Positions 1,421-37,993 of a stretch of 64,000 nt of DNA are shown in pieces; position 1 is the first letter of the stretch; each line of letters begins with the position of its first letter. The DNA comes from Marsupella aquatica (lineage: Eukaryota; Plantae; Marchantiophyta). The position numbers and the translations under genes were made by a program. The stretch covers positions 372,001-436,000 of the forward strand of contig OZ316894.1 of the NCBI GenBank assembly GCA_973895155.1, given 5' to 3'. The notes below the pieces were generated by a model that did no database searches, was not told the DNA's origin, and worked only from the letters and a program-made list of their open reading frames with translations.

Positions 1421-1513
1421 TTACTCGTGTAAATGCAATGGTTAGTACTAGGGCTTGGTGTATTCTGCCCAGGCGAATACGCACATGTCTCCCCTCTACG
1501 GTATGTAGAGTGC

Positions 1514-1531
1514 CCCCTCCATCTAGCGCCA
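1514..1531 (-). promoter_or_regulatory. primer binding site (tRNA-Asn-like) of family A element
   Basis: The minus strand reads TGGCGCTAGATGGAGGGG, one mismatch from the complement of the plant tRNA-Asn 3' end as I recall it. It lies between the LTR and gag. Confidence 0.8.
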
Positions 1532-5400: not shown

Positions 5401-6357
5401 TGCAAGTGATGGTATCTGTCGGCTATGCCCTGGGAGGCTTGAAAGTATTCCTCATCTGTTCGTCCAATGTGTGCATGCTGCTGAGTGCTGGAGACTATGC
5501 TGTGACTGCTGCCTGGGAGTTATGTTTGCACCTGGGCAGGATCTTCTGGACAAGGTGGTGGCCTCATTTGGTCGCAGTCCATTGAGGGTGGCTCGTCTAT
5601 TCCTACTGTTTCAAATTGTGTGGATGATTTGGCTGGGACGTAACACACAGATGTTCAAGGAACTTGGGCGCAGATCCTTTGATGTAAGATTGGTTCTTTC
5701 TGAGACGGTTTTGCACCTGCATGGGGCCTCTCTACGCTTCCTGTCAGGCAGTAAACACATTCGGCTTCTTAGGGCTAAAGAATTAATTGAAATGGAACAG
5801 AGGCGCTGGTTGGTGCGTAGAGATGGACATGTGACTTCGGGCTGATGATGCTTAGAGTAGGTTAGGCTCTTTGATTGGTGTTGTGGCTCTGGTGGGCTTG
5901 GGTTGGGCTCAACTGTGCGGCTCTGTTTTTTGCTTTTGGGGCTTGCCCTTGTGTTATGGCTTCAGGCCTTTTGGTTGCTCATGGATCTGGCTCTCGCTGT
6001 CGTTGACTGGCTGGCTGGGGTTGGGCTCTTTACCGGGGCCGTATATGATGTCTGGGCGAGCCCTGTTTTAGGGGTGCCCTGCTAGCCTCCTGTGGGCGTT
6101 GTCCTTTTGTGCGTGCTTGTGCTGTTTGCTTCCCCCGCCGTGGGGTTTTCACGGGTTATTTCTATAAAAGTTTGAAAAAATTTCCAAGGAAAGATACAAT
6201 GGTGTCGTATTGCTAGGCGGATGGCTCTCTCGTACTCGCGTTCAATTTCGTATCGGCGCGGGTTGGCGTGTTCCAATGAGTCGGCCAAGTGTCTTCCGGT
6301 AGACAGGAACTGCGTCCAGAATCGTAGGGCCGAACTGGAGAGGATCGTGTGCGACAT
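2443..6357 (-). pseudogene. LTR-encoded ORF of family A, copy A1 (disrupted by LINE, a stop and frameshifts)
   Basis: ORF pieces 6082-6357, 4479-4733, 4068-4445, 3432-4040 and 2443-3522 match consecutive parts of the ORF at 47133-49769. Confidence 0.88.
4895..6189 (+). mobile_element. 5'-truncated L1-like LINE
   Basis: A 17-bp TSD AAAGATACAATGGTGTC lies at 4878-4894 and 6190-6206. ORF 5039-5845 has the zf-RVT pattern (KTFLWRI...CRLC...ESIPHLFVQC...CW). The 3' end is A-rich. Confidence 0.85.
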
Positions 6358-6836
6358 TCAGAGGAGGAAGCAGTGACGACTAAGAGGGGGGGAGAGAGCT
6401 AGGGTCGAAGCTGGCGCGTGGACTGAATGACTGGTGCACTTGCAAAGGATCAGCCCCCTTTTATACCCTGAGAGCTCGTCGATCGCCCGAAGCCTCCTCG
6501 TTGCTTATAGGCCGAACCTCTCACGCTTGCAGTGTACCAGCCACTCCGCCGGTCCGAGTCAGCGTGTGACAGTGCCCGCCTCCCGAAGTTCGTTATACGG
6601 ACCCGAGGGGGAGGGGCAGGGGGGCCCATTACACGATCGCAACCTGGTCGTGCGAATAGCGACGCGCCGCCAGCCCGAACATGAATTCCCGTTTATTGAC
6701 TAATGATTCCCTACTCATAATGGCTACCTAAATACTGTCGTTATGCTAATGATAGCGGCCTAAGATACTCCTAAAGCGCGTGCCAAGCATGGTTTAGACG
6801 GAATCACTCATTACCCGCCGTACCGGCGGCGTCACA

Positions 6837-14400: not shown

Positions 14401-14643
14401 AATAGAATAGAGTTAATCCTAATTCAGGGTATATTAGAACTTATAAACGACATGATCTCATTAAAAACCCCCTGCTTTCTTCTTTGGGGTAAAAAGAGTA
14501 TCACTATCTTACATGTAATAAGTTCGTTAAGTTGAGGGGACTGAGTATATGCTAAGTAGTAATGTGTCATTCTACCAGGTATTACGGGTTTAGGGTGATC
14601 GTAATAATAATGCCTGAAATGGGTAGTCGAGGGCATTTAGGTA

Positions 14644-17600: not shown

Positions 17601-19327
17601 ACCGAGGACCATTTCGTGGATGAGCATATCATCACTAGAAAGAACCGAAATGGTCCACTTGGTGGGTCTATTGGGCCGCAGACATCCACGTTTAGTTGTG
17701 AGAGGAAATCAGGTATGTGGTAGGTGTTTTTAGTGGTGGCAGGCATTGTAATCAATTTGCCTTGTGCACATGGGATGCATGTCTCATGTTTAGATGATGG
17801 ATGGACTCCTTGGGGAATGCCCGTGGTGTTCTTGAGGATTTTGTGGTACATTCCTGGGCCAGGGTGGCCAAGGCGGAAGTGCCATAGTTCTGTGGGTGAT
17901 AAGGGTTGGGCCTGTGAATGATAAGCTGTAATTTTGGTGGCGTATACTCCAGGGGGAAGAAGTGGTGAGGTCTCTAGTATGATTGGGCCAATATCAGTTT
18001 CCTGAAAGATCTGCAAAGCATCTACTTGGTGGTCAGGTGCAGAGCGAATGTGGAGGTTGTTTTGGCGAATATCGTGGAAGCTGAGTAGATTTCTGGTTGC
18101 AAATGGGGCGTAGATGGCAGATTGGATTTGAATAATTGTGCCATTTGGGAGGGTGAGTTCAGCGGGTCCGTGTCCTTCCTCTAATTGGTTTATACCTGTA
18201 ATGGTGGTCACAAGTCTATTGGATGGGGATATGTACTGAAAGTATTGTTTATCTTTTAATATTGTGTGAGAGGTGCCACTGTCAAGGATGCAGGTATAGG
18301 TGTCGGAGGGTGAGTTGGGGTTCTTTCCCTGTAATACCATGTGTATCTCTGGTGGGGGCGTTGCAAGTGTGTATTGTGAGAGGTCTTCATCAATCTCAAG
18401 ATGGTTTGCAGCTATGGCCGTGTTCGTGGTTTGTAGAGAGGCCTGGTATAGTTTGACCAGGTGGGATTGGGCTTTACAGTTCTTTCTGATATGACCAGGT
18501 CCGCCGCAACGGAAACACTTAGCCTGATTCTTTGTGGGTGTGATGTGTGCAGGTATGTTTTGAGTATAATTTGGCTTGCGTTGCCAAGGATTTGTGGTTG
18601 GCTGTGTGGTGCCGTTGTCCGTGCGTGCTTGGCGTCTCCAATTAAATATTTTGAAGCAGCCCGTATTTCTTCTAAGAGGGCCATTGTTGCCTTTGTAAGA
18701 GGGATTACCTCTGTTGGTACTCGTGAATTGGGTTTCAGTCCTGGGTAGCATACCTGGTGGTCTTTCTCGGGAGTTCTTAAGGAGAAGGAGATCGTTCTTC
18801 TCAGCCAGGAGCATAACTGCAATTAGATCAGAGAATTGGGTGAAGTGGCGTTGTCGGTAGATCTGTGACAATTGCATATTCGTTGCAGAGAATGTGGAGA
18901 GTGTTTTTTCGATCTTGGCTGCCTTGTTGATGGGTTCTCCACATGTTGCGAGTTGAGCAGTTATACGGAAGAGGGCACTGTTGTATTTTGCGATAGTTGG
19001 GTAATCTAGGACTCTTAGATGAATCCATTCGTTGCGAGCGGCTGGAAGGGAGATTAGGCAGAGGTGATCGAACCTCAATTTTAGAGCATCCCAGAGGGCT
19101 CTCGGGTTATACTCTGTGAGGTATTCAAGTTGTAAATCAGCGTCTAGGTGATGGCGGATAATGTACAGGGCCTGGGCCTTCTCTTGTAATGTTCCATAAT
19201 TGTCCCCCAATAAAATATCACCGAGGCCTTTCATGTTGAGAACAATTTCGGCATTCTGTGCCCAAGATAAGTAATTCTCGCCGTCTATTACGAGTGACGG
19301 GAATTGGAGCTTCTCCAAAGTTGTCAT
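14644..19327 (-). pseudogene. pol: copia gag-pol (gag, CCHC, protease ILDSGT, integrase, RT YVDD, RNase H) in four frameshifted ORFs
   Basis: ORFs 17558-19327, 16149-17627, 15368-16228 and 14644-15387. The last frameshift is a 16-bp tandem duplication TGCGCTTGTACATATC at 15375-15406. Confidence 0.93.
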
Positions 19328-19483
19328 TGTCAGGTTAATTGAAGTCTAGTAGCCCTGGGGAATTGGTCGTGGTCTGTGTAAATCAGGGTGCGGGCGGTAA
19401 AGAATTGTCGATGACAATTGGAAGTTATCAAAGAGAGAAAGAGGGAAAAAAACATAAGCTCGAGAAGATTGAAGGGCATAAAA

Positions 19484-19496
19484 CGTGCTAATAACG
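19484..19496 (-). promoter_or_regulatory. half-tRNA-Ile primer binding site
   Basis: The plus strand CGTGCTAATAACG matches the tRNA-Ile(AAU) anticodon arm and abuts the 5' LTR, which is the priming mode known for Bianca elements. Confidence 0.8.
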
Positions 19497-21167
19497 TGTT
19501 AGACGATGGCTTTAATTCATACACCAACAACACAAGGATAATCTTTTCATGAGCCAATGTGGCTTATAAGGTGTTACACATTGGATGGTTATAACTACCT
19601 TCTCCTAGTCTCATGACTCTCTATATCTAGTCCCTATATACCCCTTTGTATCACTCTATGAGTTAGGGTTAAGTGTATTCTAACAGATTCACTAATAAAA
19701 AATTCTGGGACCAAGCCACGATTGATCTTTTGAAGCGCAGCTTTCTCTGTGACATCCAATGTCAGTGACCAATTCTCCAAATCTAAATACCAGGGACAAT
19801 GCAGCACCTCCCATTCACTTATCTTCCGCAAGGGTTCAATGTCCTCAATAGGGTACATCGAGTACTCCCCAAACTTCTCACAACTGGAATCATCTCTTGC
19901 ATATTGAGCCCATTGAGAGAAACATGCCGGGTAACACCACCAAAACGATCTATTTGCCACCTCACGATCCACAAAAAACCTATAAACATACCTTTTTGCC
20001 CTCCGACGGAAAGAAACAATGTCAATCTTTTCCCCAACTTTTGGGGTCCAAATGCTCTTGAAGAACCTTACCTTAACCCGCTGCAGGAAATCTTCTAATT
20101 CATCATCAATTTCAGCAAGGAGGGATGCCTGACTATTCTCCGGGGAAGAAAGAATTCTAGATTCAGGGACAGTGAGAATAATCTCAGATATTGCTTCACT
20201 TAGTAAGCACCTCGCAATGGACTCTACCTGTTCCCATGTTGCCCATCGATGCAACCAGAGCTTGGTCTCACTATCCGAAAATTGAGATGGATGAAAATAT
20301 TGTTTATGCAACTCTGGTCTGCACTGTGCTTCGAGAAGAGTGCAACGGAGTTGTGGACTCAAAGAAGTTACCCCGGTGAAAAGCCTTGCACAATCAAGGC
20401 CACATGAAACATTCCCTCTCCCCTTATCATCCGTCCGCTGAGCTTCCTTCCTTTCTTTCTCACAATAATTATGCATCTCAACACATTTCTTGAAGAAATC
20501 CCCAAAGTCTGGATTCAGGAGCGGGGCAAACTTTGGAACTTTGACATTCCAGTCGGAGAGTTGCTCCTTCATCATATCTTGAACTGCAATGTCTTTTGCA
20601 GCTTTCGACAGAGGTTCGCCCAATTCCTCCTTTAGTGCAAACTTCTTTAACAAGTCAGCAGTTTGCGAAGCTATATTTGCAGCAGAAAGAATATAAATGC
20701 ATGCATCTAAGGTCATATGCTTCGAATACCACGACGACTTCTTTACGTTTTGCGTCTTCTGCTGAAATAACTTGAAATTTTCTGGATCAATTAAATCCTT
20801 GTAAACTGAAAGGTCCGTGCTCAGGATCTTCTTGACCCGATCAACTTCCAACACCCATGAATTCTCGACATGGCATTGTGTCAACCTGACAATGAGTATA
20901 TATTTCAGCAATCGGCAAGAACAAATTGTGCCCAAAAATGAAGCAAAAAGATCAAATGTGTCCAGGCTCTTCTCACCGGTTGAGAGCATGCATCGCAGAT
21001 TCAATCTGCACGAAAGTATCCTTCTCTCCTTTGAAAATCTTCGAGACAACTCGAGGATGATACTTCACATCGTGAGGATTCTCAACAGCAAGTAGGTTCC
21101 ACGAATAGAGACGGTGATTGCCATCGAAGGGTATAACCACCGTGCTAGCAAATAGTAAATAGATATT

Positions 21168-21320
21168 CTCATACGAGCCAATTTTGCCTCGTACAAGCAA
21201 AATTTTGTCTCGTACGAGTAAATAAGTTCCTCGTATGAGCATATCTATTTACTCGTACGAGTTTCTGTTTTCTTGTATGAGTTTCTGTTTTCTTGTATGA
21301 GTATTTTTTTTTCTTGTATG
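21168..21320. repeat. left subterminal ~20-21 bp tandem array with palindromic core CTCGTACGAG
   Basis: About 8 units with cores such as ctcatacgag, ctcgtacaag, ctcgtacgag, ctcgtatgag and cttgtatgag. Confidence 0.85.
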
Positions 21321-21600
21321 CATTTTAGTTTCTTCTCTTCACGGTATGTAGCGTCCATATATGCAATAATTGTGCAGACAATATTATGGCGGGTCCCACC
21401 ATTGTACAACATCAGAGGAAATTTCTTGACGATTTCACACAAGGACTCCAATATATTGCCACGAAATATGAAGTCGAAACAAAGTCATACAATACTAGCG
21501 CCATTGTATTATACAAAAAAACAACACTTTAAGAACTCACACTTCTGCCCGTTAGAAAAGACAAACTACAATTGTAGCTATTCAACGATAAAGCAACAGT

Positions 21601-24600
21601 CTACGTTCTCGTTCCCAACTGCCTATCAAGTATGTAACGGACTTCTCCCAACGTTAGAATTGGCTGGCTACATAATGTCGAATCGAGCACATCCAGTTTG
21701 AACACATTCTTGAACACCCAATACACATGTTTGCAAGGCATGTAAGGCTTCCGATAAGTATGCCGACGGTAGAAATCCTTGCAAGAGCAACATGGGAAAC
21801 AACATATCTGAACCCAATAAGAGGCGACTGATCTCTCATGTTCATGGGTCCGGATACAAAACTGTTTCCCCGACGCATTTCCACTCGTGATCTCTCTCTG
21901 TCCAATGACGCTCATCACTTCTTTTTCAGAGGCTTCAATTCTCTTCAAATGTGTTTGGGTAAGATGCACTCTTTGCAAGCATTTCTTCCCGTTCCTTGAA
22001 GCGCATCTCACAAATGGGTCAGTTAGGTTGATCCTCTCCGGGAAAAGATTGACATCAATCCGTAACGCAGAAGGCAACGGTGCTTCGATTTCATCTCCAC
22101 GGCCTTCAGAGAGAATAAGTCCTTGTTCTTTCAAAAATTGAATCTCTGCTCCAGAAAGATTGGTCCCTCTGGCAATTGGGAGATGTGAAGGAACATTGGG
22201 AATGTTCGAGACTCCTCTCCTTGTTGTGCTTCGGTGACAGCGGTTGTTGGGGCAAAACCATATCTGATCGTTATAAGGTTGCCCCCTGAACATTCTGCAT
22301 CCTCTCACGGAAATTGCAACAACACCATCTGGATTCGGAAGGCCAACCTTCTTTACTCGATTTTGACATTCATCACGACTACCTCCCCGTCCAAGGGTTC
22401 TGTTACACACTGGACCCGCACCCCGTCTTGAGGTCCGATGCAACTGCCAGGCACCGGGAGGTACTTCACTTTCCATTGGGGAAACTGAATGACAATATGC
22501 AATCTCGACAGGTCTTGCAGGCGTCACTGGTGGGACAGAGGATCTCGTTGCTCGAGGCGTAGGTGTGTCAATGACCACAACTTCCTCAGAAGCATCGCTT
22601 TCTGACAAATTATGGACCGCATCAATTCCACCGACTGAAGGCGTAGAAGGCATTTTCTCAAAATCAGTGGAATGTAGGTTTCTCCTTTTCAAACCTTTTG
22701 TATTTGGTGAAGTAACAAGGATGGTATCATGCCTGTGCGAGTCTTCTGCCGAGACGTTCCCAGTTGCATGTCCTTTTCGTTTCACCATTCGAGTTACAAC
22801 ATCACCATTCAATGGAACGCTTCTTTCCAAATCAAACTCAACAGCGTTCGACAGGAGGAGATTGGTGGCTTCCTCAAAGAGACGCGGCGACCCCGCCAGG
22901 TCCGCCGATCAGAAGGCAAGCTCAAAAATAGTTGGGCCAATTCCTCTGCTCAATCCCCTTTTGTATGCAGTATAAGTAGCAATTTGAGCAACCGCTCTAT
23001 TTTGGTCCGTTTTGCATCCTTCAAACAGACCAACCTTTTTTTCTGTTGCCATGCTTTCATTCCAGCATGCCTAGATTCCGAACCAGTACAATTAGGAATC
23101 ATCCCAGCCTCTTCGGCACTCTTGCTCTGAAACATTGCACGCAAGGGTCTAGTACATGTAAGAAATTGCACACAAAAGTGGCAAATGGCAATAACAGTAG
23201 CGCCAGACGCTAATAAACTGATGATGATATTTCCATGTAAAGAACCATTTAACACAGAATAAAGGCAGTCCTTACATCACGCATAGTCCAAACGGATTAT
23301 TAGCGCTCGGCGCTACTATTGTGGAATAAGGAACTCTTCTATCTCACACATGGTTCACTAGCGCCGAGCGCTATTAATGGGAACATGCATCCTAGAGCAG
23401 TGTATAACTCACCAGTCTTATGAAGTTCCCCCATTGTCTCCATCGGACAACCCACCAAGACAGCCATCCTTGCAGCATCCGAAGTTTGCCTGAGTGACAA
23501 TTGCCAGACCTCCACCAGTCATCGATTTCCCTCGAGATTCGATATGCTTTCAAGAAAGTTGGCGCATTCCGAAGACGATCCCACATCTCCTTGTGTTCTC
23601 CGTGCTTTCCATCTTTTACACCTTCTCAAGAATGACGATGAAAAGATTGGAAAAAATGAAAGGCATCTGATCTTTCTCGCTCTGGGTCGGGTACATCGTC
23701 AAAGAACACGTTTCGAACAGCATTCCAACCAGCCTGAGCATTGTCCGCCATGAATCCCCGAATTGTAACATCTTGTAAACCATTTTCATCGGCAACCTCT
23801 AACATCAAACGCCAGGCTCTCTCTAGAGATTTTGCATCTTCGGCCTTTAGCTCACAAGTGAATATGGTGCAAAGTGCCCGGTAATGATGATCATATACAT
23901 GGGCACTGAAAGTAAGCCAAACTGCCGTGCTTCGATGCATGACGTCAAAACTTACCCATGAACCCTCTAACGACCCACCAGGTTTCATTCTTTGGAGCAG
24001 GTCTAGACCACTCCCGTCACCTTTTACGGTCATTTTAAAGATATGAGCACTCTCGTCCCAACAGCCTTGACCAGGGAGCAAGAACCTATGAAGAAAAGGC
24101 AGTTGGATACACTTTTGCATCCTCACAAGAAATTCCAGTTCCCCTTTCCCCTTCTGATCTTGACGGACACTCCTCAAGACGGATGCAAACTTCTGAGGAG
24201 ATGCGACGACCATCAGGGACTCCCAGATTTCCTTCTCTTCTTCAAGAGAGATTTCTTCAACAGAGGCCTCGCAAAATGTATTCGTCAGTGTCTCAGTCGC
24301 AGAGTTTTTAATCCCTGCTGGGGATGCCATGGGGTTTGCAGTGAATCCCTTCTCCAGATGAGACCTTGCAACCTTTTCTGCCTCCCTCAAAAAGACCCGT
24401 CGACTGGGATGATTGTGAAATCCCATATGAACAGCTAGTCGCGACATGTGGGCCAAAGACTTCACGTCAACTTTTGCAGATGGATACATGTAGAACATTA
24501 GAGCAGGGCAGGCCTCAACGCACATCGGAGGTTCGGAGCAATGGTGACAAACAACTCCACCTTCGGAGATCAATTCCCCAACTTGGAATGGGCCCGAAAG

Positions 24601-25412
24601 TTTTGGGGTTCTTGTCCACATCTCATTATTTCGAAACTTGTTGTCTTTCCACCACGGACAAGCATTATTTCGACACTACAGCGATCCCGTACACTGGACT
24701 TTCCCGAAATCCACATTTTTTTCGGAAGAACATTTGAAGACGTTTTCACAATCCGAGTCCAATAATAACAATCCTTACCACGATCCATATCTTTCAAACG
24801 TTCACCTTTTGCGTTCACACAGTCTATCGGGGGTAACTCAAAAACCACATTCCCATTGTAAGATGTGGGAAGACTAGGCACTACGTGATGAACAAAATCA
24901 CTCCCCCTTATAAACCGAGACAATTCACTATGACCTTTGGATTTCAAGATTGTATCCATTGCACTCTGCCGGTACACATTCAAAGGCCCAATCTTTTCTC
25001 GATCCACATTAGACTCCTTTTTAACCGCGGATGGGTAAAGTGGAATCTTCTCTCTGAGAGTAGTCGTTAGTTGCTTATCATCTCCAGAACTTTCTGAGAG
25101 TTCGATGACATTGAGTTCAGCCGCTGTGGGAGGACGAGTATAGGAGGCCCCAGAATCTCTCAAAACAAAAACCTCATATTCTTTCTGAGCCTCCAGAGCC
25201 CAATATCTTTGACCATGAACAACATCGTAGAAAACTGGAGTCTCCCCCAAACAAACCGACACTAACGAGATCGCTAAAATAGATTCCTTGGGGACATCAA
25301 ATCTCACTCCCAAATATTCCTCTGAAACACGCTTTGATTCAGATGATTCGAGGACGGGAATTGTGATTACATCCCGAGTGTCCTTCCTCGTGACAACGAT
25401 ATTTTGAGCCAT
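21601..25412 (-). pseudogene. MULE transposase (Cys/His DNA-binding region, DDE core, C-terminal SWIM finger), mildly disrupted
   Basis: Cys/His region CHHC..C..CPA..HMGFHNH; DDE-like residues SFDVMH, FMADNA, DAFH and ESRH; SWIM finger CSCKDF..PCKHVYW. GT-AG intron at about 23127-23412. One in-frame TGA at 23626-23628 and frameshifts near 24600 and 22960. Confidence 0.82.
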
Positions 25413-25587
25413 GGCCTCAAAAGAGGGACATGCATTTGCCCCGCGCGAAATGAAATATGTTTATCATGAGATTCGAGTACGAGAAGTAAACGTTCCATTC
25501 TCATTATAGAGTCGTTATAGATTTGGACGCACTCCATCAATGACGTTTTGTCATCTTACCAACGGCAGGATTCGGGTTCATAGTTAC

Positions 25588-25735
25588 TAGCGCCTGGCGC
25601 TACCTCTAAGTGTAAAACACTCTTGGATGAGGACTACGAATGCCAATAATAATAGCGCCTGGCGCTACCTCTGGGTGCAAACATTCTTGGGTGAGGAGTA
25701 CGAATGCCAATAATAATAGCGCCTGGCGCTACCTA
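25588..25735. repeat. ~64-65 bp tandem repeat (2.3 units), each unit carrying the palindrome, upstream of the transposase
   Basis: The unit TAGCGCCTGGCGCTACCTCT..TCTTGG.TGAGGA.TACGAATGCCAATAATAA is repeated. Confidence 0.9.
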
Positions 25736-28700
25736 TTTCAATGGACTTGAAAACATTCAATTGAAGGATCAGTACAATAACACGATATAGTACGTGTCAT
25801 TAAGTTGGCACGCTTGAAGATCTTCACTGGATCTTTGCGAATCCGATCCGCCCGGGTCCAAATGTGTCAGAGAGGAAGCGTCCATGAAAGTTATATCAGA
25901 GGGGCCTCTTCGAAGTGGGTACCCAGGACCAAGTGCGAACTCTCCTTATATCTAGTCGTTCCCCTCGGATGTCCTCATTGTCAAGCCATTCTTCACTGAG
26001 TCGCAGTTGTGGCTCATCTTTCGGGCGCGTGGTTCCCGTTCTCGCTTTCGGGTCCAGTTGTTCTTTTTGGCTTTCCTGCGCGTTCTTGTTCTCCTTCTCG
26101 TTGTCGTTTCTCATTCTCGTCCTAGTTCACGCTGTTGTCCTCCTTCACGTTCTCGTTCGCTCTTCTTGTTCTCGTCCTCGTCCTCACTTTCAATGGCACC
26201 TCCATGAGGGAAGGCAAAGGATGAGGCACTTGTCCCGAGCGACACCGACAGGGAGACCCCCGCATCAAATAGCTTACCGCCTCGGCCGAATGCCGAGAGG
26301 ACGACGGTTCCAATATCGAAGAAGGGGAAACTCATCTCAAAGACAAAGAATGTCCCAACTGTGGGTCGCAGCGAAGGATCCAATCGGCCAAAATAATGCG
26401 AGCGGCCCGACTTCTGTTCCCTCTAGGGATATCGCCATTGCTTCAGTCGGCCGTCCAAGAGCCGACACTATGTGCACGAGAGTCTCCGTATCTTCTTCAT
26501 CTACTGAGAGTGATCGTTCTTCGAGCGGGGACTCATCACCGAGCAGGCAAGGATTTGCGTGGTATGGATCGAGCGACTCGAATGACGACTCCGATGCGTA
26601 CAAGCCAAGTTGGTGGGAAGACTGATTTCCCGTTGTCAGGGCGTATCGTTTGAGTGTTGGAGAGACTTGGAGGATCCATCAAGGTTGATAGGATCTGTTT
26701 CCACTCGTTTTTACTTATAGAAAACCCATACCGTTCCTTCCTCGTATGCCGGATTTCTAGTGTAATGTAACATTTTGTATTCGAATGGCACAGCCGTTCG
26801 TTTTTACCTCGGTGTCATTGCTTTTGAATTCAGAAGACCAAGCTTTAATTTTCGGTTCTGCTCCCGTGTTTGCATTGTATTTCTGAATGCGAACTTGATC
26901 TATTTCTTTGAAATGGCCGTAAAGACTCGCTTGCTGTCAATGTTTTGACTAGCGTCGGGCGCTATTATGAGAAACAAAGTGTCCGTAACACTGTCGTGAC
27001 AAGTCTTATCTCTAAAGTGTTTTTGATAGCGTTGGTCGCTATTAATGAAAGGAATTACAAGTCAGGAGTTATTTTACTTTTATTTCAACAAATTCTGTTT
27101 AATTGATGTGAATGTTAATAGCGCCAGGCGCTATTGTAATTCATTGGAATATTCGTTGAATGAATGGGTTCATGTTGTCATGTTTGTTGTCATTGGACTC
27201 GGATTTCGTCATTTATTTGAATACTAGCGCCGAGCGCTAATAAAGTTGGTTTGTCTATACCTGCATAAAATTGGAAAATTTATAGACAATTGTGTTGATA
27301 TTACTGCCCGTAGCTACATTTGAAAGTATGTTGTATAATAGCGCCTGGCGCTATCCAGAACCACCGACACTGATGTGGTTCCAACGGTCACTTTCCAACG
27401 GTAATATTATAGTAGATTGAGGTTCACGGAACCCTTTTTGCTTTTGTCTGGGATGAAAGTCCAATCGGAGAATGCCATCTGTACTTGGGACCGTTGGAAT
27501 CGAATGGCTGGTTCTATTGTATCGGTGTTTAATACGAGGTGGAGATCCTTCGTTTGGGATAATTTAGTCCGTCTACGCGCTCAGACCTCGGACTATACGA
27601 GTTTGTCAAGTGCGTATGTGCGTCCTTTATTGGTCACGTACATTTTGAGACGTGATCGTCACAAGAACTGCACGGCGCGTACGACAGTGCCGGGTGGTCG
27701 AGTCGCTCTCCACGGCAACTTTTGGCTGGGTGATACGAGAATGGGGGAGGCTGATGGTGGTCATTCTGAGTCCTCTCAGTCTTCGTTCGCTGGTTCAGTA
27801 TACACCCATCGTGTCACTCGATCGACTGCGTCCCTATCGACTTTTGAAGCTGAATCTGCACAGCCCTTCCCGAGGTTAAGGAGAGGGAGAATGGACCCTA
27901 AGGAGGTCTCCATGGGTGAAGTCAATGACATAGGCTTATCGATGGACGAGGTAATATCAAAGCACGCGTTGTCGTTCGGGAAGGATTTTCGAGGAATCGA
28001 TAAGGAGCCACCTCGAATTCCTCTTTGTAGATTGCTCCCCATGGAGGTTGTTCGAACATTACAGAAAGAAAGTGCATCGATCGAGAAGTTGAAGGAATCA
28101 TTCCGTGTCACCGGGTACAACTCGCGCATTGGGATGCCTTTCTACGTTCAGCCTGTGAATGCCGACGGGGTTTCGCAGATATGCACCACCGAGATCCGGG
28201 ACTCTTGGGATCCAATCTGGGTCGCAGAGAATAACAAGTTTGAGGAAGAGTGTGATGCGGACCCAGCGTTCCATATTCTAAAAGATAAAATGTTTTGTGT
28301 GTTTGACGGAAATCATCGATTGTACTCGTGGTCAATCGTCACGAGGGAGAATCCGGACAACTTGAAGTATCATCCTCGTGTGATTTGCGTCATTTTCAAT
28401 GGTGACAGAGGTTCGCTAGTTGAGCTCGAGGCGTCAATGCACACCGTGAACCAGTAAGTTCTATTCGTTAACTGTTGTTACCCCTGTCATTCATTTTTGA
28501 CCAAACATGCTTTGCGAAAGTGTTCATTCCCCAATTTTTGCTAGCGCCCGGCGCTACTAATTCCTTTTCATTACATCCAGGCTTGGACAAGCAGTCGTCG
28601 AGCCTTCCTGGATTCTTGACGCGAACAAAATTTCCCAAATTCTGTCGCGTGATCTTGATCACTATAAGCCACTCATCGACAGCGCGAACATGGCAAAGTT

Positions 28701-29858
28701 TGAGGCGATCCGAAAGAAGATGAGAAAGGGTCTTGGTTTACACATAAAATGCCACAGGATGCTCTCATCTACATTCTGTGTGTGGACAAAATCAAGTCTT
28801 ACTCAAATCAATTTAAGTCTGATATGGCTTTAGCCAAAGCTCAAGGGACTCCTTGGTCAGAAGAGGAGACCACAAAGAGGCATGAGGCAATGATGAAGGA
28901 GGCGACCAAAGATTGGTCGATCAAAGTGACGAAGATCACCCCTTTACTTCATCCGGATTTTGGAGATTATTTGGGAACCTGTGCTGAGATGTATCCCGTA
29001 ACTGAGAAGAACAAACGGGAGAAGAAGCCAGACACAGTTGTATGCACAATGGATCGAGCCAGGTTGTTTACTGCTGTTTCATACCTGGATCCAAAATTGA
29101 GGTGCACCCTTCTAGTAGCCCACTGCACTCCCGAGATTCGGAAACAGTTTTTCCATCCTGCAAGTGTCAACGACGAGCCTGTGAAGTAGTGGTGCCATAC
29201 ATGGCATACTTGGAATTCTGTGGAGGGAATTGCAACTGGAATGCTTCACACTTCCTTCAAACAGATTTCTGACCGGATGCCGGCTGACCGTCTCACAAAG
29301 TCTGGGTGTGAGTCAATGGAGGCCGTGCTTAAGATCATTCTCGATGAATTCAGAAACTTTGGGGATCTTGTCAAGGCAAAATTCTTCAACAACTTGTGGT
29401 CTTCCAAATATGCGGACAAGGAAGATTACACAACGGAACCGGAAGAGAGCCAAACGATATCTATACCGGTTTTACATGTGGATGGAGCTTAGATCTCCTG
29501 ACACTCTGTGGGCATACCCGGCTGCATTTCAGAAATGGGTGTGGATATACAGTAAACTTGAAAAGCTAAGATTAAGTGCAAATTTTTAAATTTTCTGGTC
29601 GCTAAAGTTAGAGTTCACTTAAACTTACATTTTTTACGCCTTTTAGTAAGATACGATCTTACAATCTTACGATCTTACGAGTTACGAACTTACGCGGTAC
29701 TAGAAGATTACGCCGTTGCAAGACTAACAGGCGGAAAGTACACTATGAGCCGCATCGCGTGAAATCTTACGACCAGAGCGAATCACTCTCTGCATGACTA
29801 TTTCCGACGCTTACAAGCATCGCTCCGCTTCATCTGATCAACATCCACCTCAAGATTT

Positions 29859-31343
29859 GTGAACCCGAGAGCTATGGCAACATTCGATTGTGATGAGGAA
29901 TACCTCATTGATTCTGTGGCAATTCCAAAAGCGCTCGTCATCAGGCTCCCCAGGACCAAAGAGAGCTATGAATCATTACGCCAATCCTTGAGAGAGCTTG
30001 GACTGGAGAAATTATTACGACTACCATGGACTTCAGAGTTGGACACCTACCTGGAAGATTTTGTCAGAGGATCAATTGTCGCCTCACCTTCACCTACTTC
30101 TATTCGAGGACGGCCCAGCAAATGGACCATAGATCACTTCGCGTATGCTTTTGGATGTTCTGCTGACGGAGAAGCGCTACTTTCGCCCAAGGATGATACA
30201 TCAACTCCATACTTTTCAGGTACCCGGAATAAGAGAAATGGCTGGAATGTGAGTCAATGCAATCATTTGGAGCTAAGAATTCTTTTGGAATTTTTGGTTC
30301 CTATTTTTCATCCCAAGAAACCAACTGTTTGCTCCATTTCTCTGGCCAATACCATCATCGCTGCGCACAGTGGTAGAGTAAAGGTCAATTGGGCTTTGGT
30401 ATTTTTCAATGTTGTGAGGGATCAACTTCGGACATTAAGGGCGAATCAATCAACTCCACTGCAAAACTATCTAGCCCAGCTATACTCCGCTTTTGATTGC
30501 TCACTTCCTGAGGAGGTGATGGAGAGAGATTATCTTATGGAAGAAATCTCCAAGTTGTGGGAACAAGATGAAATTATGCCTACTACAGCAGAAGAGGCAA
30601 ACGTCATATCGCCAGCTTCTCCGGGCAGCCGGGCAAGTCTTCACAATTCAAGTCCTTCAGATGAGGTACCCATGGACCTAGAAGCACTTACTACAGATGC
30701 TGAGATGATAGACTACTCAAGGATCCCCTCACCACCCCCTTCCACAGGAATTGGGAAGTTTCCTATTCGACTTGCACAGGACGACTCCAATCAGACCCTG
30801 ATCAGTAAGGTGTGTGCTTTGCTCAACTGTGACTTTCATTCACTGTACGAGACCATTGAGCAATTGCGCCATGACGCAGTGACACAGGTTCCTCCTTCTG
30901 CACTTTCATCTCCGGATCATGAGAATTCGCCATCATCTTCACCTCCAGCAGAAATTCAGCTCTCCCCAGAGGAACTTTTTGCTGTTAAGACTAGGGCTCA
31001 AATCTCAGTTCCATCCCCTATGGACTTGAAGGAGACCTCACCTACAAATTCAGAGCCTCCTCCCTGCTCATCTGTAGAACATCACTCCTGCCTTAAGATT
31101 GTCCATGAGTTAACTACTATGTTAGGCTGCCGTTCAGAAGAAGTCACCTCCATAGTCGATGAATTTCTTGATAGACCTGAACCTTCACGCTCCCCACTGC
31201 CATCCTCTCAGTTTCCCTATAGTCCTGATTCAAATTATGAGCCTACTGATAGTCTACCTCATAAATCTTTGCACCCCACACAACACTTCTCTCAGCAAGG
31301 ATTTCCCTTTTCTGAAGATTCTGATCCTCCATCCACACCCTAA
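29859..31343 (+). CDS. 494-aa ORF within LTR C; N-terminal region resembles gypsy accessory (Athila ORF/plant-mobile-domain-like) proteins
   Basis: GLEKLLRLPW..LEDFV..SIRG..WTIDHFAYAFG..RNGW..EFL..NWA aligns by eye with the family A (FEHLASLPW..EFV..LRG..LT..IFGLP..NGF) and family B (GLEAFVRLPW..EFV..YG..LT..VFGLP..KNGF) ORFs. Confidence 0.75.
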   Translation: MNPRAMATFDCDEEYLIDSVAIPKALVIRLPRTKESYESLRQSLRELGLEKLLRLPWTSELDTYLEDFVRGSIVASPSPTSIRGRPSKWTIDHFAYAFGCSADGEALLSPKDDTSTPYFSGTRNKRNGWNVSQCNHLELRILLEFLVPIFHPKKPTVCSISLANTIIAAHSGRVKVNWALVFFNVVRDQLRTLRANQSTPLQNYLAQLYSAFDCSLPEEVMERDYLMEEISKLWEQDEIMPTTAEEANVISPASPGSRASLHNSSPSDEVPMDLEALTTDAEMIDYSRIPSPPPSTGIGKFPIRLAQDDSNQTLISKVCALLNCDFHSLYETIEQLRHDAVTQVPPSALSSPDHENSPSSSPPAEIQLSPEELFAVKTRAQISVPSPMDLKETSPTNSEPPPCSSVEHHSCLKIVHELTTMLGCRSEEVTSIVDEFLDRPEPSRSPLPSSQFPYSPDSNYEPTDSLPHKSLHPTQHFSQQGFPFSEDSDPPSTP

Positions 31344-31368
31344 ACCCTAAACCCTAAACCCTAAACCC
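31338..31368 (+). repeat. (CCCTAAA)4 plant telomere-type repeat
   Basis: Four exact units; they supply the TAA stop of the 494-aa ORF. Confidence 0.9.
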
Positions 31369-31619
31369 TTCACTTCTCTCCCTATGATATTCCAGTCTGT
31401 GACTCACCAGATCAGGGATTCGAAGGAGTTAATGCAGCCTTGCGATCCAACCCCAACCTTGTTGCAGTTGTCACTTCTTCTACCCAGACTCCTAGAAACG
31501 CTATCATCTATAAAATGGAGCCTAGAACACCAGAGCAACAAGTCCAGAAGTATGTCACCACTTGTAAGGTTATGCATGCCAATACACCGCCTATAAGTGA
31601 GTTCTAGAGGTTTTATTAT

Positions 31620-32312
31620 TTGAAGAAAGCAGAGGCTAGCTACATTTTTGATCTCAGGATGATTGGTACCTCTCGCGTGGAGTTGGCTCAGTTTGATGAG
31701 TACTGGACAGATTCAGTCTACTTCCGACCTATACTGGCCGTTATGTTTCTACAAGGTGATGTTGAAGTTGATGACCCGGATTTAATCTTGGCCTATTTGG
31801 GAAATATAGCCGCTTATGCTTTAGATTTCTTACTGATTTTTCTAAAACAGAGCAACAAGTCTACTACCCCTGATCACTCATATATTCCCACTGGACCCAA
31901 GGTTATCCTTACTTCAACCACTTCTTATGAAGACAAGCAGCGAGTATGGAACAACATCAGCACGCAGCAGCTAACAAACTACACTCGCTACTTCCGGGAT
32001 GTGCAGTGGAAATTACGATCCTCCTACAACAAGATGCTGAGTACAGAGATGTTCTTACAATTCTACCCATCTGTCTACGCCAACTCGTGCAATTGTTTAG
32101 ATGTCATAGGCATCTTACGGGAAGCAATCAGAATCAACCAGTGCTTTTTGGAGAAAAGGATGCCACTTATGTATTGGGGAAGACAGATGAGATGTCTACC
32201 TTACATCCGGGATCAACCTCACTGTGATGAAGTAAGGGAAGCTATCCGGACGCGCACTATTTGGAAAGTAGAAATTAGAGAACCAGAGGATATTCGACAA
32301 CCAAAAGATTGA
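31620..32312 (+). CDS. 230-aa ORF or downstream exon within LTR C, function unknown
   Basis: Open frame with globular-looking composition. A possible intron GTGAGT(31598)..CTCAG(31657) precedes it. Confidence 0.55.
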   Translation: MKKAEASYIFDLRMIGTSRVELAQFDEYWTDSVYFRPILAVMFLQGDVEVDDPDLILAYLGNIAAYALDFLLIFLKQSNKSTTPDHSYIPTGPKVILTSTTSYEDKQRVWNNISTQQLTNYTRYFRDVQWKLRSSYNKMLSTEMFLQFYPSVYANSCNCLDVIGILREAIRINQCFLEKRMPLMYWGRQMRCLPYIRDQPHCDEVREAIRTRTIWKVEIREPEDIRQPKD

Positions 32313-35300
32313 AGCAGACCTGCAATTTTGTTAAGTGTCAGAGGCAGTTTCAGTTACTGTACCCCGCTCGATTTTATTAGACATGTTTTAAGATTCCAAA
32401 ACTCATCAAGTCTTTTTCAGTAGACAGCTTATACATAGGAAAACACATTGGCAAAGTCTCAATCACTTTGGATTGTAGTTAGAAAGTTAGAAATACTTTA
32501 GTTTGCTGAGTTTTCTATATCGTTAAGTTCCCGCGACTACGACTTTACGATCTTACGATCTTATGATCTTACGAACCTACGCTTTTACGAATTACGATCT
32601 TACGATACTACGGTAAACTTAACTTAGTTAGTTTTAGACCTTTTCATACTTAGTTTTCATTTTTGACTTCTTGAGGGTTTTGAAGGGTCATGACTCTTCA
32701 ACCCCCAAGGGTTTTTCCTCGATGTTTTTCACTATAAGTACCTTCCACTTCTAATAAGCAGCAGTAAGTAAGTCAGACATGACTTGTCGCCCCTTGGTGT
32801 TGTCCTTGTGATTTTGGACTTTTTGAATTCAGAGCAGGCATCCTAGGAGGGACTTACCTCCTTCTTGTATTTTGGAACCCAAATACTTGAAGTAAAACCT
32901 CAGTTATGAATCTCGTGAATTATAATGTCAGATTCCGCTTTGGTGACACATTGTAATCTCACAAGTTCTTAGAGTTAACCCATTGAGTTTAAGTTGCATT
33001 GGAAATGATGTTTTCACCTTCATGTTGCTTAGTACCATCTAAATGCTGAAGTATTTATCCTTTTAGATCTTGACTAAGTATCACTTAGGAAGAAAGGTCA
33101 AGACATGTTGCCGGCATTTTAAAAGGATACTCTAGTATGCAGTTTAGATCTGAAAAGCCGTGTGGATTTGAATTCCCTTAAAGTCATTCCATTATTGCTT
33201 ATGTCTAAGGAGTAACCTTGGTATATTCCAAACTCCCTTAAGCATACTCTAAGAGATTTTTCCTTGTGTTTTGTTAATTGCAACCTTTTGCTTAATTGAT
33301 GGTTATATGATGTTGAGTTATCATCAAAAACTGCTCACCGCTGTGGAGCGATCTTCAAAGTACCTAATTAAAGTAGTCAAGATTGATTACTATGTGTGAC
33401 ACAACAGCTTAAAGCTTTATTTTTAGTTTATTACATCAAACCAACCCAATCTTGTTCTTAACGGGAACGAATACCGAGTTTAGATACGTAAAAGAGTTCT
33501 TTTGGTTCTCTATAGCAAACTACAATGGGTGTCTATCGAAGAGGGAGACGCTCTTGCCAACCTTTATTCGATGTACCCAACGGAGGGAAAGTTTCCACCA
33601 CGTTCATTGTCGGAGTGGGAGAGACTTCACTGTCCCTGGTACCTGGACATAGACAAATGGGATTTACCGTTCGACGAAGCTGAGAAGGATGCCTTCATGA
33701 AGTTGCAGAAGTCCCAGATCCCTGCCAACTATGTGTCTGCAATGAAGCAAGGTCTCCAGTCTGATGTTGACGAATCTGCATCTGAGTTACAAAAGAATTG
33801 TGAGTCTCTTGTCATGCACGTTGACCGAAGCCATAAGCCAAGAGCAAAGGCGAAGAATGAGTCAGCTCACCAAGTGACTCCACAAGGTCCTTCAAGAAAA
33901 GTGAGTAGTCTAAGCGCTTTTTGGTTACTTGTTGGCGCTGCTTATGCAGGAGTTTCATTAGGAAATTCCTTTGATTAATAGCGCCTGGCGCTAGTCTGAA
34001 AGGTTGGACTCATTCAAGTTTCTGTGCCTAATAGGAGGTTGAAAGTCCGACACGGAGGTCCCGGCTGCCGAAGGGAAGAATGATGCAACTCCTCAGGCAT
34101 CGGAGGCAAACACTGGAGCTCAAGAAACCCCGGATCAAGGGACCCCGGATGGTGCTGGAAAATCCATTGTCCCTCTTGACGCAACTAGCACGAAGAAAAA
34201 GAAAAAGAGAGGCGCCGGTGAGGATAGAGCAGCATCATCTACTCGAGACGTTATTTCCTGTGGACTCCAGAGAGATGTCGGGAATTTTAAGTGAAGGTGT
34301 TCTAGACACTGTTTTGTGGAGTCCAATTTAAACAAATTTTACGATTCGGTATTTAACAAGGGGATTAAGCCCATGTGGGTTACTAAAGTTGAGGCCTGGG
34401 GAAAGGAATTGGTAAAGTCAGGAGACAGAGAGAAGGGAGTAATGCATGGCGGAAAAGAGAGGGGCTTTGGTGTGGATGCTGGTTTCATCTATATTCCCAC
34501 TGGATTAAAACCAACACTTCTTGATCGGAAGGTTCCCAAGTGGAACCTTCAGGATTACACTATTCCCAGCTCTTTCTTCCAAGCCATGGAGCCATTCCTT
34601 GCAGACGATGGCCTACTTGCAATTTTACACAGAGGAGACTATGATCAGGTATCTGAAGTGATTGCGGCTTGCCAGGATTCTAAGTGTTTCCAGTGTATTT
34701 CAACCCACCATGTGGTCATGACTACACCAATGTATAGGCCCCGATCTGATACTCAAGTAACAATTCCTCTTGCACATACTAGCGCCCGACGCTACTATCA
34801 GCATTCGCAATATCTACAATTCACTTATCTTTTGTAAGGATGAATGGTTTACTAGCGCCAAGCGCTAATATATGTGTCTGTTTTCTTATACTGCCTTCAT
34901 TGTGAAACTGTGTTGCAGATATTCACACTTACTCTTAATATATTTTGCCGCATTTCGACAAAGGGAAGGGTCCCAAAAGACCCCAAGTTCCGGCCACTAT
35001 CGAATGAAGAAGACCCTTCTGTCACTAACATTATTGGGTTTTCGTTGCCGCGACATGACCCGACTCCTGAGCTCCAATTTGCAGGAAATTCACGCTTGCC
35101 TGTGGGTTTCATGCAAACTATTTTGGAATTGGTGACTCTTCCTGGAGATATCGTTATGGACTGGACAGTAGGTTCCGGTAGTACGTTTGTGGCTGGAGAT
35201 TATTCTGGTCGCTTTGTTGTTGGGCTGGAAAATCGGCCAGAGTTTGTAGATACTTCCGGTAAGGTCTTCCTTGATCTTGATCTCCTAAGAAGATTCCTGG

Positions 35301-36207
35301 AAGTAAGAAGCAGGACAGGCTCCGTGCTATTCTAAATTTTGATTCGGAAGACGAGGATGAGGGTGGCAATGCTTCTCAGCAATCTAAAGATGATGAGGTG
35401 TCGAAGAATGTGGTGGACCTTGGATCTGGAGATGAGGACAGTGAAGAGTCAGAAGAGTAATTTTCTTTAGCTTCTTTCTCTCATTGTATACTTTTTTCCA
35501 AAGAACTCCTCTACTCCCTTTTGTCTAGAAAATTCGCCCGATTTCCCGACTTCGACTAAAGAACTCCAGTTCAAATTCTCAGGTCAGAGTGGAATCTTCG
35601 GAGGCGTTTTCAACTTCGAAGGAACGTCTCTAGGAACGTTGTACAGACCCCGGAGAAGCCATTTGTTCTCCCCTCTTATGCTGAAAAGGCGGCACGATGG
35701 GCAGATTCAGTCAGGACGCTTACTTGGGAGAGTAAGGGTCTTAGACTCAGGAGAGGCTCAGATAGAAAGTTTGTGCATAATCACTTCGTAGATGATATTG
35801 CAAAATCCAAGTATGTGGACGACGAAGCAGAGTCCACTGATAGATCAGAAAGTAGCGGCTCTGAATCGGGCTCAGAGTCGAGTGGTGGTTGTGGATCTGG
35901 TCTTTAGTTCTCCTTGTTTTATTTACCCGTTTATGGAGAACGACGACACTCAATAAGAACGCCGTGACGTGTCGGATTAGAGTAGCGCCCGACGCTATTA
36001 CTGTAGCCGGTAGTTCAAAGAGGTTTTTATTTTGTTTTTTTCCTTATAGCGCCCGGCGCTAGTATAAATGTACTCAATGGCCGCTTCACGTCCAATATAT
36101 GTGACAATATTTTCATACCCTTCGGTGTCTTTTTTTGGGTGCACATTTGCTGGTATGAGTTTTGCTGTTTGCTGTTTGCTGTCACGGAGAGATCCCCCGC
36201 CATTGAA

Positions 36208-36756
36208 TACACTAAACATCTTATCCTTGAGCACAGCAAAATCAGGATGCGAATCACACTCCCTCTCAAAAGCTTCATTCTGCGCCAACCACATTGGATC
36301 CCAGCTCTGTCTGATTGTGTCATTCAGAAACTGCACGTCCCCATTCTCATTTGTCATTTGCACATAGAAACGAGGCGCGTCCTCAATGTACCCTTGAGCT
36401 CGGAACTCGCTCTTAAGAGTCTCTATCGCATTCGAATCTGTCTGCAGAGACCTTACGAGCTGCATGTTCCGCATTCGACATAGTGGAATTCTTGGGGGAA
36501 CAAGAGGATACCCAAATTCATCTAGCCCAAACTGGTAAAGGTGACGGTTAATTACAACTGAGAAAGGCTCGGACTTGGTAGAAGCCATCAAAGGTGGTAC
36601 AATATCCATTGGATCAACAAGCTTTCGCCTCCTTGGAGTCTTCAGCCCCGAAGCAAGTGCTTTGTGGCTTGTAGAACTTCTGGTCTCCCGACGTTGAGAG
36701 GCAGCTGATTGTGAGGCAACGGATGAAATAGACTCAGGAGATGCAAAAGTTGCCAT
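36208..36756 (-). pseudogene. 5' part (ParB-like domain) of the outer element's ParB-MTase-like gene
   Basis: MATFASPES..PPRIPLCRMRNMQLVRSLQ..IETLKSEFRAQGY..LKDKMFSVF matches exon 1 of the gene at 27741 and stops exactly at the TSD. Confidence 0.88.
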
Positions 36757-37356
36757 CGACTGATAAGGAGAAGAGAACCACACGAAGGGAAGACAAGGAA
36801 TTGGTACGGTGAATGCAAAGGAATCCAAAGTCACATGTGTTGGGAATCCAAAGTAAGAATTCAGGGGAATCCAAAGTAACCCATACTACAGTGTACTTGA
36901 CAGTGACAGGGAATATCAGTATTTAACACCTTCATGTGAAAGATCCATCAACAAGATCTCAACTCTGTTAATCCCACCAGCACTAACGTTAACGAAGCTC
37001 CAGTTAACGTTAACTTGGAGTCTAGTTAGTATTTACCAACAACTCGGTCGGATGAAATGTACATTCAACTTCAACGGGTTGGAGACAATTAATCTCTAGG
37101 TGACCAACTTGGGTTGGGTGTCCGTTGACACTAACCATTCTCCAAAAAAAAATATATGCCGATGGAATAAATAAACCAAAGTATTTATGAAATGTACTCT
37201 TTCAAATCAAGTTAACCCTTCCAACGGTAATATAATTTTGAATCTTTGGTGCACGTAGATGCACTTGGTCACCATTTGGAACGAGTCTGGATCTTTTTAA
37301 TGGAAAAATGGACAAACCCCATACGTTGTTTAAGCCCAGTATTTAGACAGTTTTTT

Positions 37357-37993
37357 GCCAGCGACATCGCTGGCCAAATCACTGTAAACCCTAAACCCTT
37401 AATATGATGTTTGTCCATTTAAAATGAGCTCTTAATGCTTTCTGAAAATCTTGAATACTCTACAGAATCTTTGAAACTGTTAACCCCCTCTACTAAAAGC
37501 TCTCGGTTTAACTACTATGTTATGACATTTAGGAAATATATTAGGTTCTGGATTCCTGAATTGACCCCCAAACTGAAATAAAAGTATATGCAAATTTCTG
37601 CGGCTTCAGGCTAGCGGTATCGCTGGCCTTATTGAAGTTTTATGAATGGTTTAATTACGGGACATCTCAGATTCCTCTCTTCTGTTTATATCATGTTGTT
37701 GGTGAACATGATGTTTTCAAATATCAAAAATATAGATCTTAAACACTGAAAACTTACCTGAATTATGTCTAGCGAGGTCGCTAGCAAAACTATTTTTAAA
37801 CACAAAGCTCCAAGTTCATTTAGCGTCCTAGTACACCCCAACTATACCCCAAGTTCAGGAAATGTGCTAGTATATCCCTCACCATACTTCTTGTCAAAAT
37901 AAAATAGGCCATTTAATTAAAGAGTAAACACTAAAATTCTGGTTCATAAGCACCTCATTATTCGAGAAAATTTAGGCTAGCGATATCGCTGGC
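37357..37993. repeat. palindrome family AGCGA-N2-TCGCT of the outer element
   Basis: GCCAGCGACATCGCTGGC (37357), GGCTAGCGGTATCGCTGGCC (37609), CTAGCGAGGTCGCTAG (37769) and GCTAGCGATATCGCTGGC (37976). Also CAGCGAGATCGCTG at 13162 and a degenerate copy at 11903. Confidence 0.85.

Follow-up and report, generated by a model that had tools for sequence, protein, structure and literature searches.

The window analysed here comprises 64,000 nucleotides of the liverwort Marsupella aquatica (assembly GCA_973895155.1, contig OZ316894.1, positions 372,001 to 436,000) and contains a Mutator-like DNA transposon, hereafter the inner element, inserted in an older relative, the outer element. Both carry an accessory gene with the same domain order, namely a ParB-like domain, a middle domain, a methyltransferase fold and a conserved tail. 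In either copy the methyltransferase motif IV has lost both functional positions, and none of the relatives covering this motif keeps it complete. We consider it probable that the domain is a pseudo-enzyme, its fold being kept as a non-catalytic S-adenosylmethionine (SAM)-pocket module of an accessory protein that would bind palindromes of its own element, in a Mutator-like family that is likely a liverwort one. With greater confidence, the sequences suggest that in the family branch containing the window copies this domain does not write N6-methyladenine (6mA) or N4-methylcytosine (4mC).

Motif IV in the window and its relatives

Motif IV of the inner copy lies within VDAGFIYIPTG (34472-34504, plus strand) and that of the outer copy within AHLGFIALPTG (13472-13504, minus strand). 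Both strings had been quoted in an earlier sequence-only reading of this DNA, which noted the lack of DPPY or SPPY; they are indeed present at these sites, and the coding frames of the two window genes contain no (D/N/S)PP(Y/F/W). The same reading saw one substitution pattern in the two copies, which does not hold: the motifs read Y-I-P-T (34490..34501, plus strand) and A-L-P-T (13475-13486), and what they have in common is the loss of both functional positions. The first residue of motif IV abstracts a proton and the last one stacks on the base (PMC7544214). The proper comparison motif is D-[LIV]-P-Y, frequent in the phage enzymes that were fetched, and the [IL]-P part of the window motif is therefore no change. 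This motif was found in 145 of 155 phage and plasmid enzymes with a usable open reading frame (ORF), all reached through the C-half of the family, a share that is biased because two seeds of that type yielded most rows.

The placement of motif IV was examined by profile alignment. When the N-half profile of the family was compared, unguided, with a profile of 30 phage and plasmid beta-class enzymes, FIYIPTG/FIYLPTG was aligned to LCDLPYG with a score of 36.0 (E 5e-5), the best of 100 block shuffles reaching 18.45 and the reversed profile 15.0. The whole domain is colinear with these enzymes over 200 columns (probability 98.2%). An earlier five-row profile had given the same register at a nonsignificant score of 17.6, reached by 2 of 60 shuffles, and was superseded once 73 hits were available. 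The register is settled by a distant branch of the family, in which D-[ILM]-P-[TSI]-G is retained at this position. Profile searches of the PDB with the N-half returned blank or chance matches, and nothing beyond chance matches came from a search of phages at the DNA level.

A structure model of the relative P0005, built with AlphaFold from family rows only, places motif IV at the end of a strand. Its block-mean confidence (predicted local distance difference test, pLDDT) is 88-97 over residues 121-290, and the N-half is confident. The best match of the model is CcrM (Foldseek E 1e-11, Z 17.4, root-mean-square deviation 3.5, 222 aligned), followed by M.BceJIV (Z 17.2), M1.HpyAVI and M.MboIIA (both 16.4) and M.PvuII (15.8); these matches are at the level of the whole fold and are not residue-level alignments. 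The motif order IV, target-recognition domain (TRD), I and the seven-strand fold of the beta class are both found, as judged from the colinear profile and the P0005 model, and we predict that the domain has a beta-class DNA amino-methyltransferase fold. The inner C-terminal exon matches PF01555 with 34.6 bits (E 2.5e-8, cut-off 26.7) and solved beta-class enzymes weakly; the N-terminal methyltransferase exon has no match in Pfam. In the Atlas, the N-half of the relative P0002 is nearest to N6-methyltransferase clusters (0.85-0.87), a lead only. With five rows, modelling of the N-half did not give a usable structure (pLDDT 33), and this attempt, too, was superseded with the 73 hits. The homodimer predicted for P0005 with SAM (score 0.20, mark 0.42) gave no evidence either way. 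On the combined profile and model evidence motif IV is thus correctly placed, and its assignment, for which the sequence-only reading had asked a structural overlay and an alignment of homologs, is not structurally wrong.

To define the relatives, a profile seeded by three close ones was searched and gave 73 proteins. For motif counts P0003 was added and P0048 and P0056 were removed as repeat-protein hits; 60 of the resulting 72 proteins cover motif IV. A complete catalytic motif, (D/N/S)-x-P-(Y/F/W), occurs in 0 of these 60, and the canonical (D/N/S)PP(Y/F) that intact copies might have carried is thus absent from the homolog alignment too. The third position is conserved (Pro in 57 of 60), and the fourth is Thr in 40, Ser in seven and Asn in six, never Tyr, Phe or Trp. 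The first position varies widely: A16, F11, Y11, D10, S5, C3 and one each of R, Q, E and H. All ten Asp-keeping relatives fall outside the branch that contains both window copies. In a quick tree without bootstrap (49 family and 12 outgroup rows, those with fewer than 95 N-half residues left out), the 35 rows lacking both Asp and Glu group together in a single branch with a support of 95 in the Shimodaira-Hasegawa-like approximate likelihood ratio test, the window copies lying there in separate sub-branches. The simplest reading of these sequences is that the aromatic residue was lost in the family ancestor and the Asp later. Among 30 relatives whose source was looked up, all 17 with a named organism are liverworts and none is algal: 12 come from Riccia sorocarpa, mostly with Asp, and five from Calypogeia fissa, without it. 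Automatic UniRef names of the relatives, such as 'Trimethylguanosine synthase', were not used. Word-index protein searches for longer relatives were blank, and a metagenome contig scan with query A1 found nothing; the one locus from the scan with A2 (L170) was discarded, since the match arose by chance in a GC-rich contig read out of frame. Several phage beta-class enzymes among loci L002-L169 have a motif I lacking the usual Phe (D-N-[TC]-M-G-S-G), resembling the transposon family, and such a phage subfamily is a possible donor.

The SAM-binding motifs fared differently from motif IV. Motif I, D-[WF]-x-x-G-x-G, and the Glu of motif II are kept in 12 of the 12 rows spanning them. The string proposed earlier for the motif X/I/II region stands as quoted for the inner copy; the outer one reads TKPRDIVLDWNIGDGSSFSAGELSGRFVVGVE, with PRDIV and GDGSS in the motif I region and a frameshift just upstream, and the common core of both consists of D-[WF]-x-x-G-x-G and the Glu of motif II. 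Motif X, also thought to be preserved, is not: the segment H-P-x-x-K-P before motif I, found in 145 of 155 phage and plasmid rows, is replaced in all 13 family rows that reach it. These motifs bear on the idea that the domain, itself inactive, pairs with an active methyltransferase from another locus and directs it to the element, in the manner of METTL3-METTL14 or MTA1-MTA9. Beta-class enzymes are dimeric with a division of labour (PMC7544214), and active TSPPY enzymes are reported in Marchantia. On the other hand, an active paralog is absent from the element and from the 73 hits, and the SAM motifs are kept, not eroded. We regard this as the least probable of the alternatives that we weighed.

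The motif counts could also reflect an active enzyme with a changed chemistry or substrate, its new residues (Thr/Ser-Gly, Trp-Asn, His) acting on protein, RNA or another DNA position, an option that we regard as unlikely. In its favour, motifs I and II are kept, position 4 of motif IV is Thr or Ser in 47 of 60 relatives, and the strand after motif IV has a His, or Tyr in one sub-branch, as its last residue, as read by eye; this His and the conserved Thr/Ser could form a new active site. Position 1 is Asp or Ser in 15 of 60, and three of the Ser lie inside the branch of the window, so that residual chemistry is possible there. Under the same option, the Asp-keeping Riccia branch may still weakly write 6mA or 4mC. 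Related NPPY enzymes, moreover, act on proteins (PMC7544214). Against a catalytic role, position 1 is occupied by ten different residues, ranging from Ala to Phe and Arg, unlike a catalytic site; H-P-x-x-K-P is replaced; and the rotifer N4CMT became inactive once the first and last residues of its SPPY were replaced (PMC8885841).

Differences between copies of the inner gene were then considered, using contigs of five sequencing runs, many of them 95-99% identical and of high summed depth. A further run (X6) yielded no contig on it, and no RNA data set was listed for this stretch, which has no bearing on expression. Of the 28 differences listed in the surroundings of motif IV, 15 are synonymous, compared with 22% expected from a calculation that ignores transition bias and shared descent. 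Over a wider stretch, 40 rows were counted, with 193 more lying outside the count; 30 of the 40 are coding and 23 of the 30 synonymous. The differences listed at the motif IV Tyr codon are confined to a silent change and, in each of two runs, a single contig with His; an Asp, Asn or Ser codon is absent among them. We rejected the possibility that the Tyr and Ala of the window are private one-base changes from Asp or Ser: such codons were listed at this site in none of three runs, and the family shows the same loss. The domain was thus likely kept by selection after the loss of its catalytic motif, as these sequence differences suggest. The earlier reading had argued from two diverged copies against random decay; this argument gains strength from the 0 of 60 intact relatives and the mostly synonymous copy differences, which are firmer ground than two copies alone.

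This evidence also bears on the view that the domain is functionless baggage, captured once, decaying and copied along with the element. Both window copies are indeed broken, the inner one by stops, frameshifts and a 3.9-kb insertion, the outer one by a frameshift and two insertions, one Copia-like and the other the inner element, and many relatives are fragments. However, open frames, splice position, the fold-level pattern and the SAM motifs persist across proteins that are 15-40% identical, synonymous differences are in excess, and the stop and the gap of the inner copy are absent in other copies. Baggage therefore appears very improbable.

The accessory gene and its transposon

The inner methyltransferase domain is the C-terminal part of an intron-containing gene on the plus strand that joins a ParB-like domain to a beta-class N6/N4-methyltransferase fold. 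The ParB-like exon (27405..28457, start approximate) carries the DGNHR motif at 28302-28322. It is followed by the middle-domain exons (28579..33900; 28579-~29560 and ~33510-33900), which have a stop and frameshifts and are split by the unrelated insertion of ~3.9 kb. The next exon (34041..34756, start approximate) encodes a basic linker and the N-half of the methyltransferase fold with motifs III-VII; its stop at 34292 is absent from the other-copy contigs covering the site. A phase-0 intron with GT..AG ends (34757..34918) contains two palindromes, at 34780 and 34853. The exon behind it (34919..35460) encodes motif VIII, a TRD-like loop, the replaced motif X (35084-35101), motif I (35159-35179), motif II (35222-35236) and an acidic tail, and its 28-nt gap near 35280 is again missing from the other-copy contigs that cover it. 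The conserved last exon (LPSYAEK...FVDD; 35584..35907, bounds approximate, translations by eye) is similar in the outer copy and in P0059 of Riccia. Two ORFs had been described here earlier; they are real and not separate, being two exons of one gene around the intron 34757-34918. Gene models of P0005, P0014 and P0061 run across the position of this intron without one.

The 1191-aa P0059 of Riccia has a domain order identical to that of the window gene. Its ParB-like part corresponds to the inner ParB-like exon with 35% identity over 175 aa (E 4e-34). In the Atlas, residues 125-330 of P0059 (window 27900-28454) are nearest to DUF3723 (0.95-0.96), a lead whose nearest clusters are from ascomycete fungi, with unnamed cnidarian clusters besides. 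DUF3723 is a family carried by fungal Starships, and there is a hint here of one ParB-like domain common to unrelated large transposons.

The outer gene lies on the minus strand and has been severed by the inner element. Its 5' ParB-like part is at 36208..36885, the remainder of the ParB-like domain with the middle domain at 19690..21119 and the methyltransferase-fold exons at 12596..13900 (motif I 12857-12877, frameshift near 12910). The middle domains of the two copies are 40-50% identical. The 36.2-36.9 kb region was also considered as a separate third ParB copy, a candidate that was dropped once it was seen to be the 5' end of the outer gene. Within the outer gene, a Copia-like long terminal repeat (LTR) element (14194-19685) has 189-bp LTRs that are 99.5% identical and a pol region with stops and frame changes. 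Two ORFs without a Pfam match, of 501 and 234 aa, lie in the insertion in the inner gene (window ~29570-33500, ends approximate), together with arrays of the TACGATCT type around 29644 and 32538 and a further array, of CCCTAAA, at 31336-31372.

The inner element spans 15,070 bp including this insertion (21129..36198). Eight of nine bp are identical between the target duplications flanking it (21120-21128 and 36199-36207), and its degenerate terminal inverted repeats are identical at 36 of 55 positions. Target duplications of 8-11 bp and terminal inverted repeats are typical of Mutator-like elements (PMC6446971), and both are seen here. The element has inserted in the older relative that supplies the outer copy, splitting its F-D-G-N-H-R codons. 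These are the most conserved codons of the related ParB-like domain, a single case in which chance and preference are indistinguishable.

Head to head with the accessory gene, a transposase-like gene lies on the minus strand at 21601..25460. Its motifs are DDE-like (23935-49 and 23734-51), D-x-x-H (23656-67) and SWIM-like C-x-C...C-x-H (21727-21789), and by these motifs, which read by eye resemble Mutator signatures, the gene is a candidate Mutator-type transposase. Possible transposase sites lie close to the left end of the element (window 21154-21330, on its inner side), in the form of sub-terminal CTCGTA/TACGAG repeats together with an inverted pair of 24 bp. Between the divergent genes, low-complexity open frames occur on both strands (window 25888-26625), in a CpG-rich core. 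The setting comprises GT..AG introns and nested LTR retrotransposon sequence across the window. On both sides (window 1-6800 and 38100-64000), the outer element is truncated by nested Gypsy-like copies that carry long gag-protease reading frames as well as additional ORFs; neither the transposase nor the end of the outer element was found within the window.

Palindromes and a possible role of the domain

Sixteen palindromes of the form TAGCG[CT]-n3-[AG]CGCTA (17 at two mismatches) are present in the window, compared with 0.00 expected from 100 shuffles. All lie inside the inner element (23198..36061) and outside the drawn exon spans, which cover about two thirds of it, and none occurs in the outer element. 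The latter has a palindrome of its own, AGCGA-n2-TCGCT, within 11904..37991 (13163, 37360, 37771 and 37979, with near matches at 11904 and 37612). Its four exact sites compare with 0.04 expected, for a pattern chosen after seeing the sites; at one mismatch there are seven compared with 0.27 expected, six of them in or beside the outer element and the seventh in the inner transposase. The outer palindrome at 13163 lies in the same intron as the inner pair 34780/34853. Each of the two related elements, two elements only, thus has a different non-coding palindrome. With palindromes masked, the intervals densest in inner palindromes have CpG observed/expected ratios of 1.08 and 1.13, the top two of 43.

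Such CG-rich sites could be the target of a reader of methylated bases, in which the emptied pocket binds 5-methylcytosine, 4mC or 6mA in the palindromes and senses a host silencing mark. The AGCG arm common to the palindromes of both elements, the 4mC reported in liverwort sperm (Walker preprint) and the replacement of Asp by small or aromatic residues are in line with it. A reader is nevertheless quite unlikely, in that the aromatic residue that would stack on a flipped base is the one lost first and position 1 is not conserved. Among the three options named in the sequence-only reading, pseudo-enzyme, reader and altered chemistry, the pseudo-enzyme is the best supported.

If the domain is a pseudo-enzyme, the following course can be proposed. 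An ancestor would have acquired a prokaryote-type D-[LIV]-P-Y enzyme, which then lost the Tyr and later the Asp. ParB proteins load as clamps on inverted repeats; by analogy with ParB on parS-type repeats, the ParB-like and middle domains may load on the palindromes, which would retain the protein at the copies of the element that encodes it. A role in DNA contact or as a scaffold would fall to the dead methyltransferase domain, comparable to that of the eroded subunits METTL14 and MTA9, and neither 6mA nor 4mC would be written. That the domain is part of such a self-binding accessory protein is probable. The likely pay-off would be a divergent promoter of the element that is kept open, perhaps through a shield against host methylation like that provided by VANC at the motifs it binds, or an aid to transposition. 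Anti-silencing specifically is possible, though we doubt it. More doubtful still is a second sequence-specific anti-silencing system of plants, in which a ParB-like clamp on element-specific palindromes and a disarmed SAM-binding fold would shield or read CG sites, protein and palindrome co-changing between subfamilies.

Besides the motif IV residues that could point to a new chemistry and the simplified expectation behind the synonymous counts, several observations weigh against the pseudo-enzyme in a self-binding protein. The transposase-like gene has no match in Pfam, NCBIfam, PHROG or the PDB. The ParB label is composed of the DGNHR motif, weak matches (DGQHR, E 0.2; phrog_1033, E 0.063) and the Atlas lead. 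CpG is low at the outer palindrome cluster (0.54) and at the inner methyltransferase exons (0.58), the profile being mixed. Finally, element context and palindromes come from two elements of a single window.

Relation to known systems

Accessory genes with ParB-like and methyltransferase domains are already known from algal transposons, and the family with the eroded motif, likely of liverworts, adds a form to this known kind. In Ectocarpus, Sola1-1_Ec32 carries a 1104-aa ParB-like and N4C/N6A methyltransferase gene on the strand opposite the transposase, and its protein has been proposed to bind and modify its own element (PMC12477816, which cites similar proteins in green and red algae after Iyer 2011). 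Compared by description, the inner element, also a large DNA transposon, likewise has both domains in one gene, with its transposase-like gene on the other strand; it differs in being Mutator-like with a 9-bp duplication, in its liverwort relatives and in its element-specific palindromes. The catalytic motif of the window family is eroded, whereas the available passages of PMC12477816 do not give the state of the algal motif. In the red-algal Plavaka PAG2 and PAG3, PF01555 and ParB-like domains are found on DNA transposons, some of them Mutator (bioRxiv 10.1101/2025.02.11.637652). There too, inverted repeats lie beside the ParB-like gene and are proposed as its sites; however, the domains are in separate genes (PF01555 with SET, ParB with a 2OG oxygenase) and the repeats in tandem arrays, whereas in the window one gene combines both domains and the palindromes are scattered over introns and spacers. 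The algal genome papers propose that such accessory proteins bind and methylate their own transposons and, in the passages available, report no test.

In the literature that we covered, subscription journals and Repbase falling outside it, the liverwort family, its eroded motif and the palindromes were not found described. An accessory gene kept under selection after the loss of its catalytic motif would mean that writing a mark need not be its purpose. Moreover, the family supplies candidate target sites, different in each of two related elements, and the named liverwort genomes hold Asp-keeping and Asp-less forms, so that the self-binding idea is testable in a land-plant lineage.

The domain resembles CcrM, M.BceJIV, M1.HpyAVI, M.MboIIA, M.PvuII, M.RsrI and the phage D-[LIV]-P-Y enzymes in fold and in the motif order IV-TRD-I. 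Unlike them, it has no catalytic first residue in the branch of the window, no aromatic in any relative, a replaced H-P-x-x-K-P, an insertion of ~30 residues before motif IV, introns and a ParB-like fusion. Marchantia DN4MT1 and rotifer N4CMT are likewise prokaryotic-type beta-class enzymes in eukaryotes, DN4MT1 also in a liverwort, but they are active host genes that keep SPPY, and DN4MT1 is without extra domains.

Eroded subunits are known in METTL14 (EPPL) and MTA9 (NALW) (PMC7544214), which, like the window family, conserve an amino-methyltransferase fold without a working motif IV; an active partner is known for them and none here. DIRS1 retrotransposons carry inactive methyltransferase domains (PMC4738411) that are similarly transposon-borne and without a working motif IV; these are PCIF1-related and reported to have lost substrate-binding residues, whereas the window family keeps its SAM motifs. 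Retrotransposon Dam domains, for their part, are reported to keep the pocket (bioRxiv 10.64898/2026.05.21.726589).

A comparison can also be drawn with VANDAL and its protein VANC in Arabidopsis, for which binding and demethylation are proven (PMC5735166); VANDAL has been described as the one transposon in which self-binding and self-modification are known (bioRxiv 10.1101/2025.02.11.637652). Like VANDAL (PMC5735166), the inner element is Mutator-like with degenerate ends and an accessory gene, and its short non-coding motifs differ from those of a related element. VANC motifs are non-palindromic tandem 9-mers, whereas those of the window are palindromic and known from sequence alone; no homology to VANC was seen, and none was searched for.

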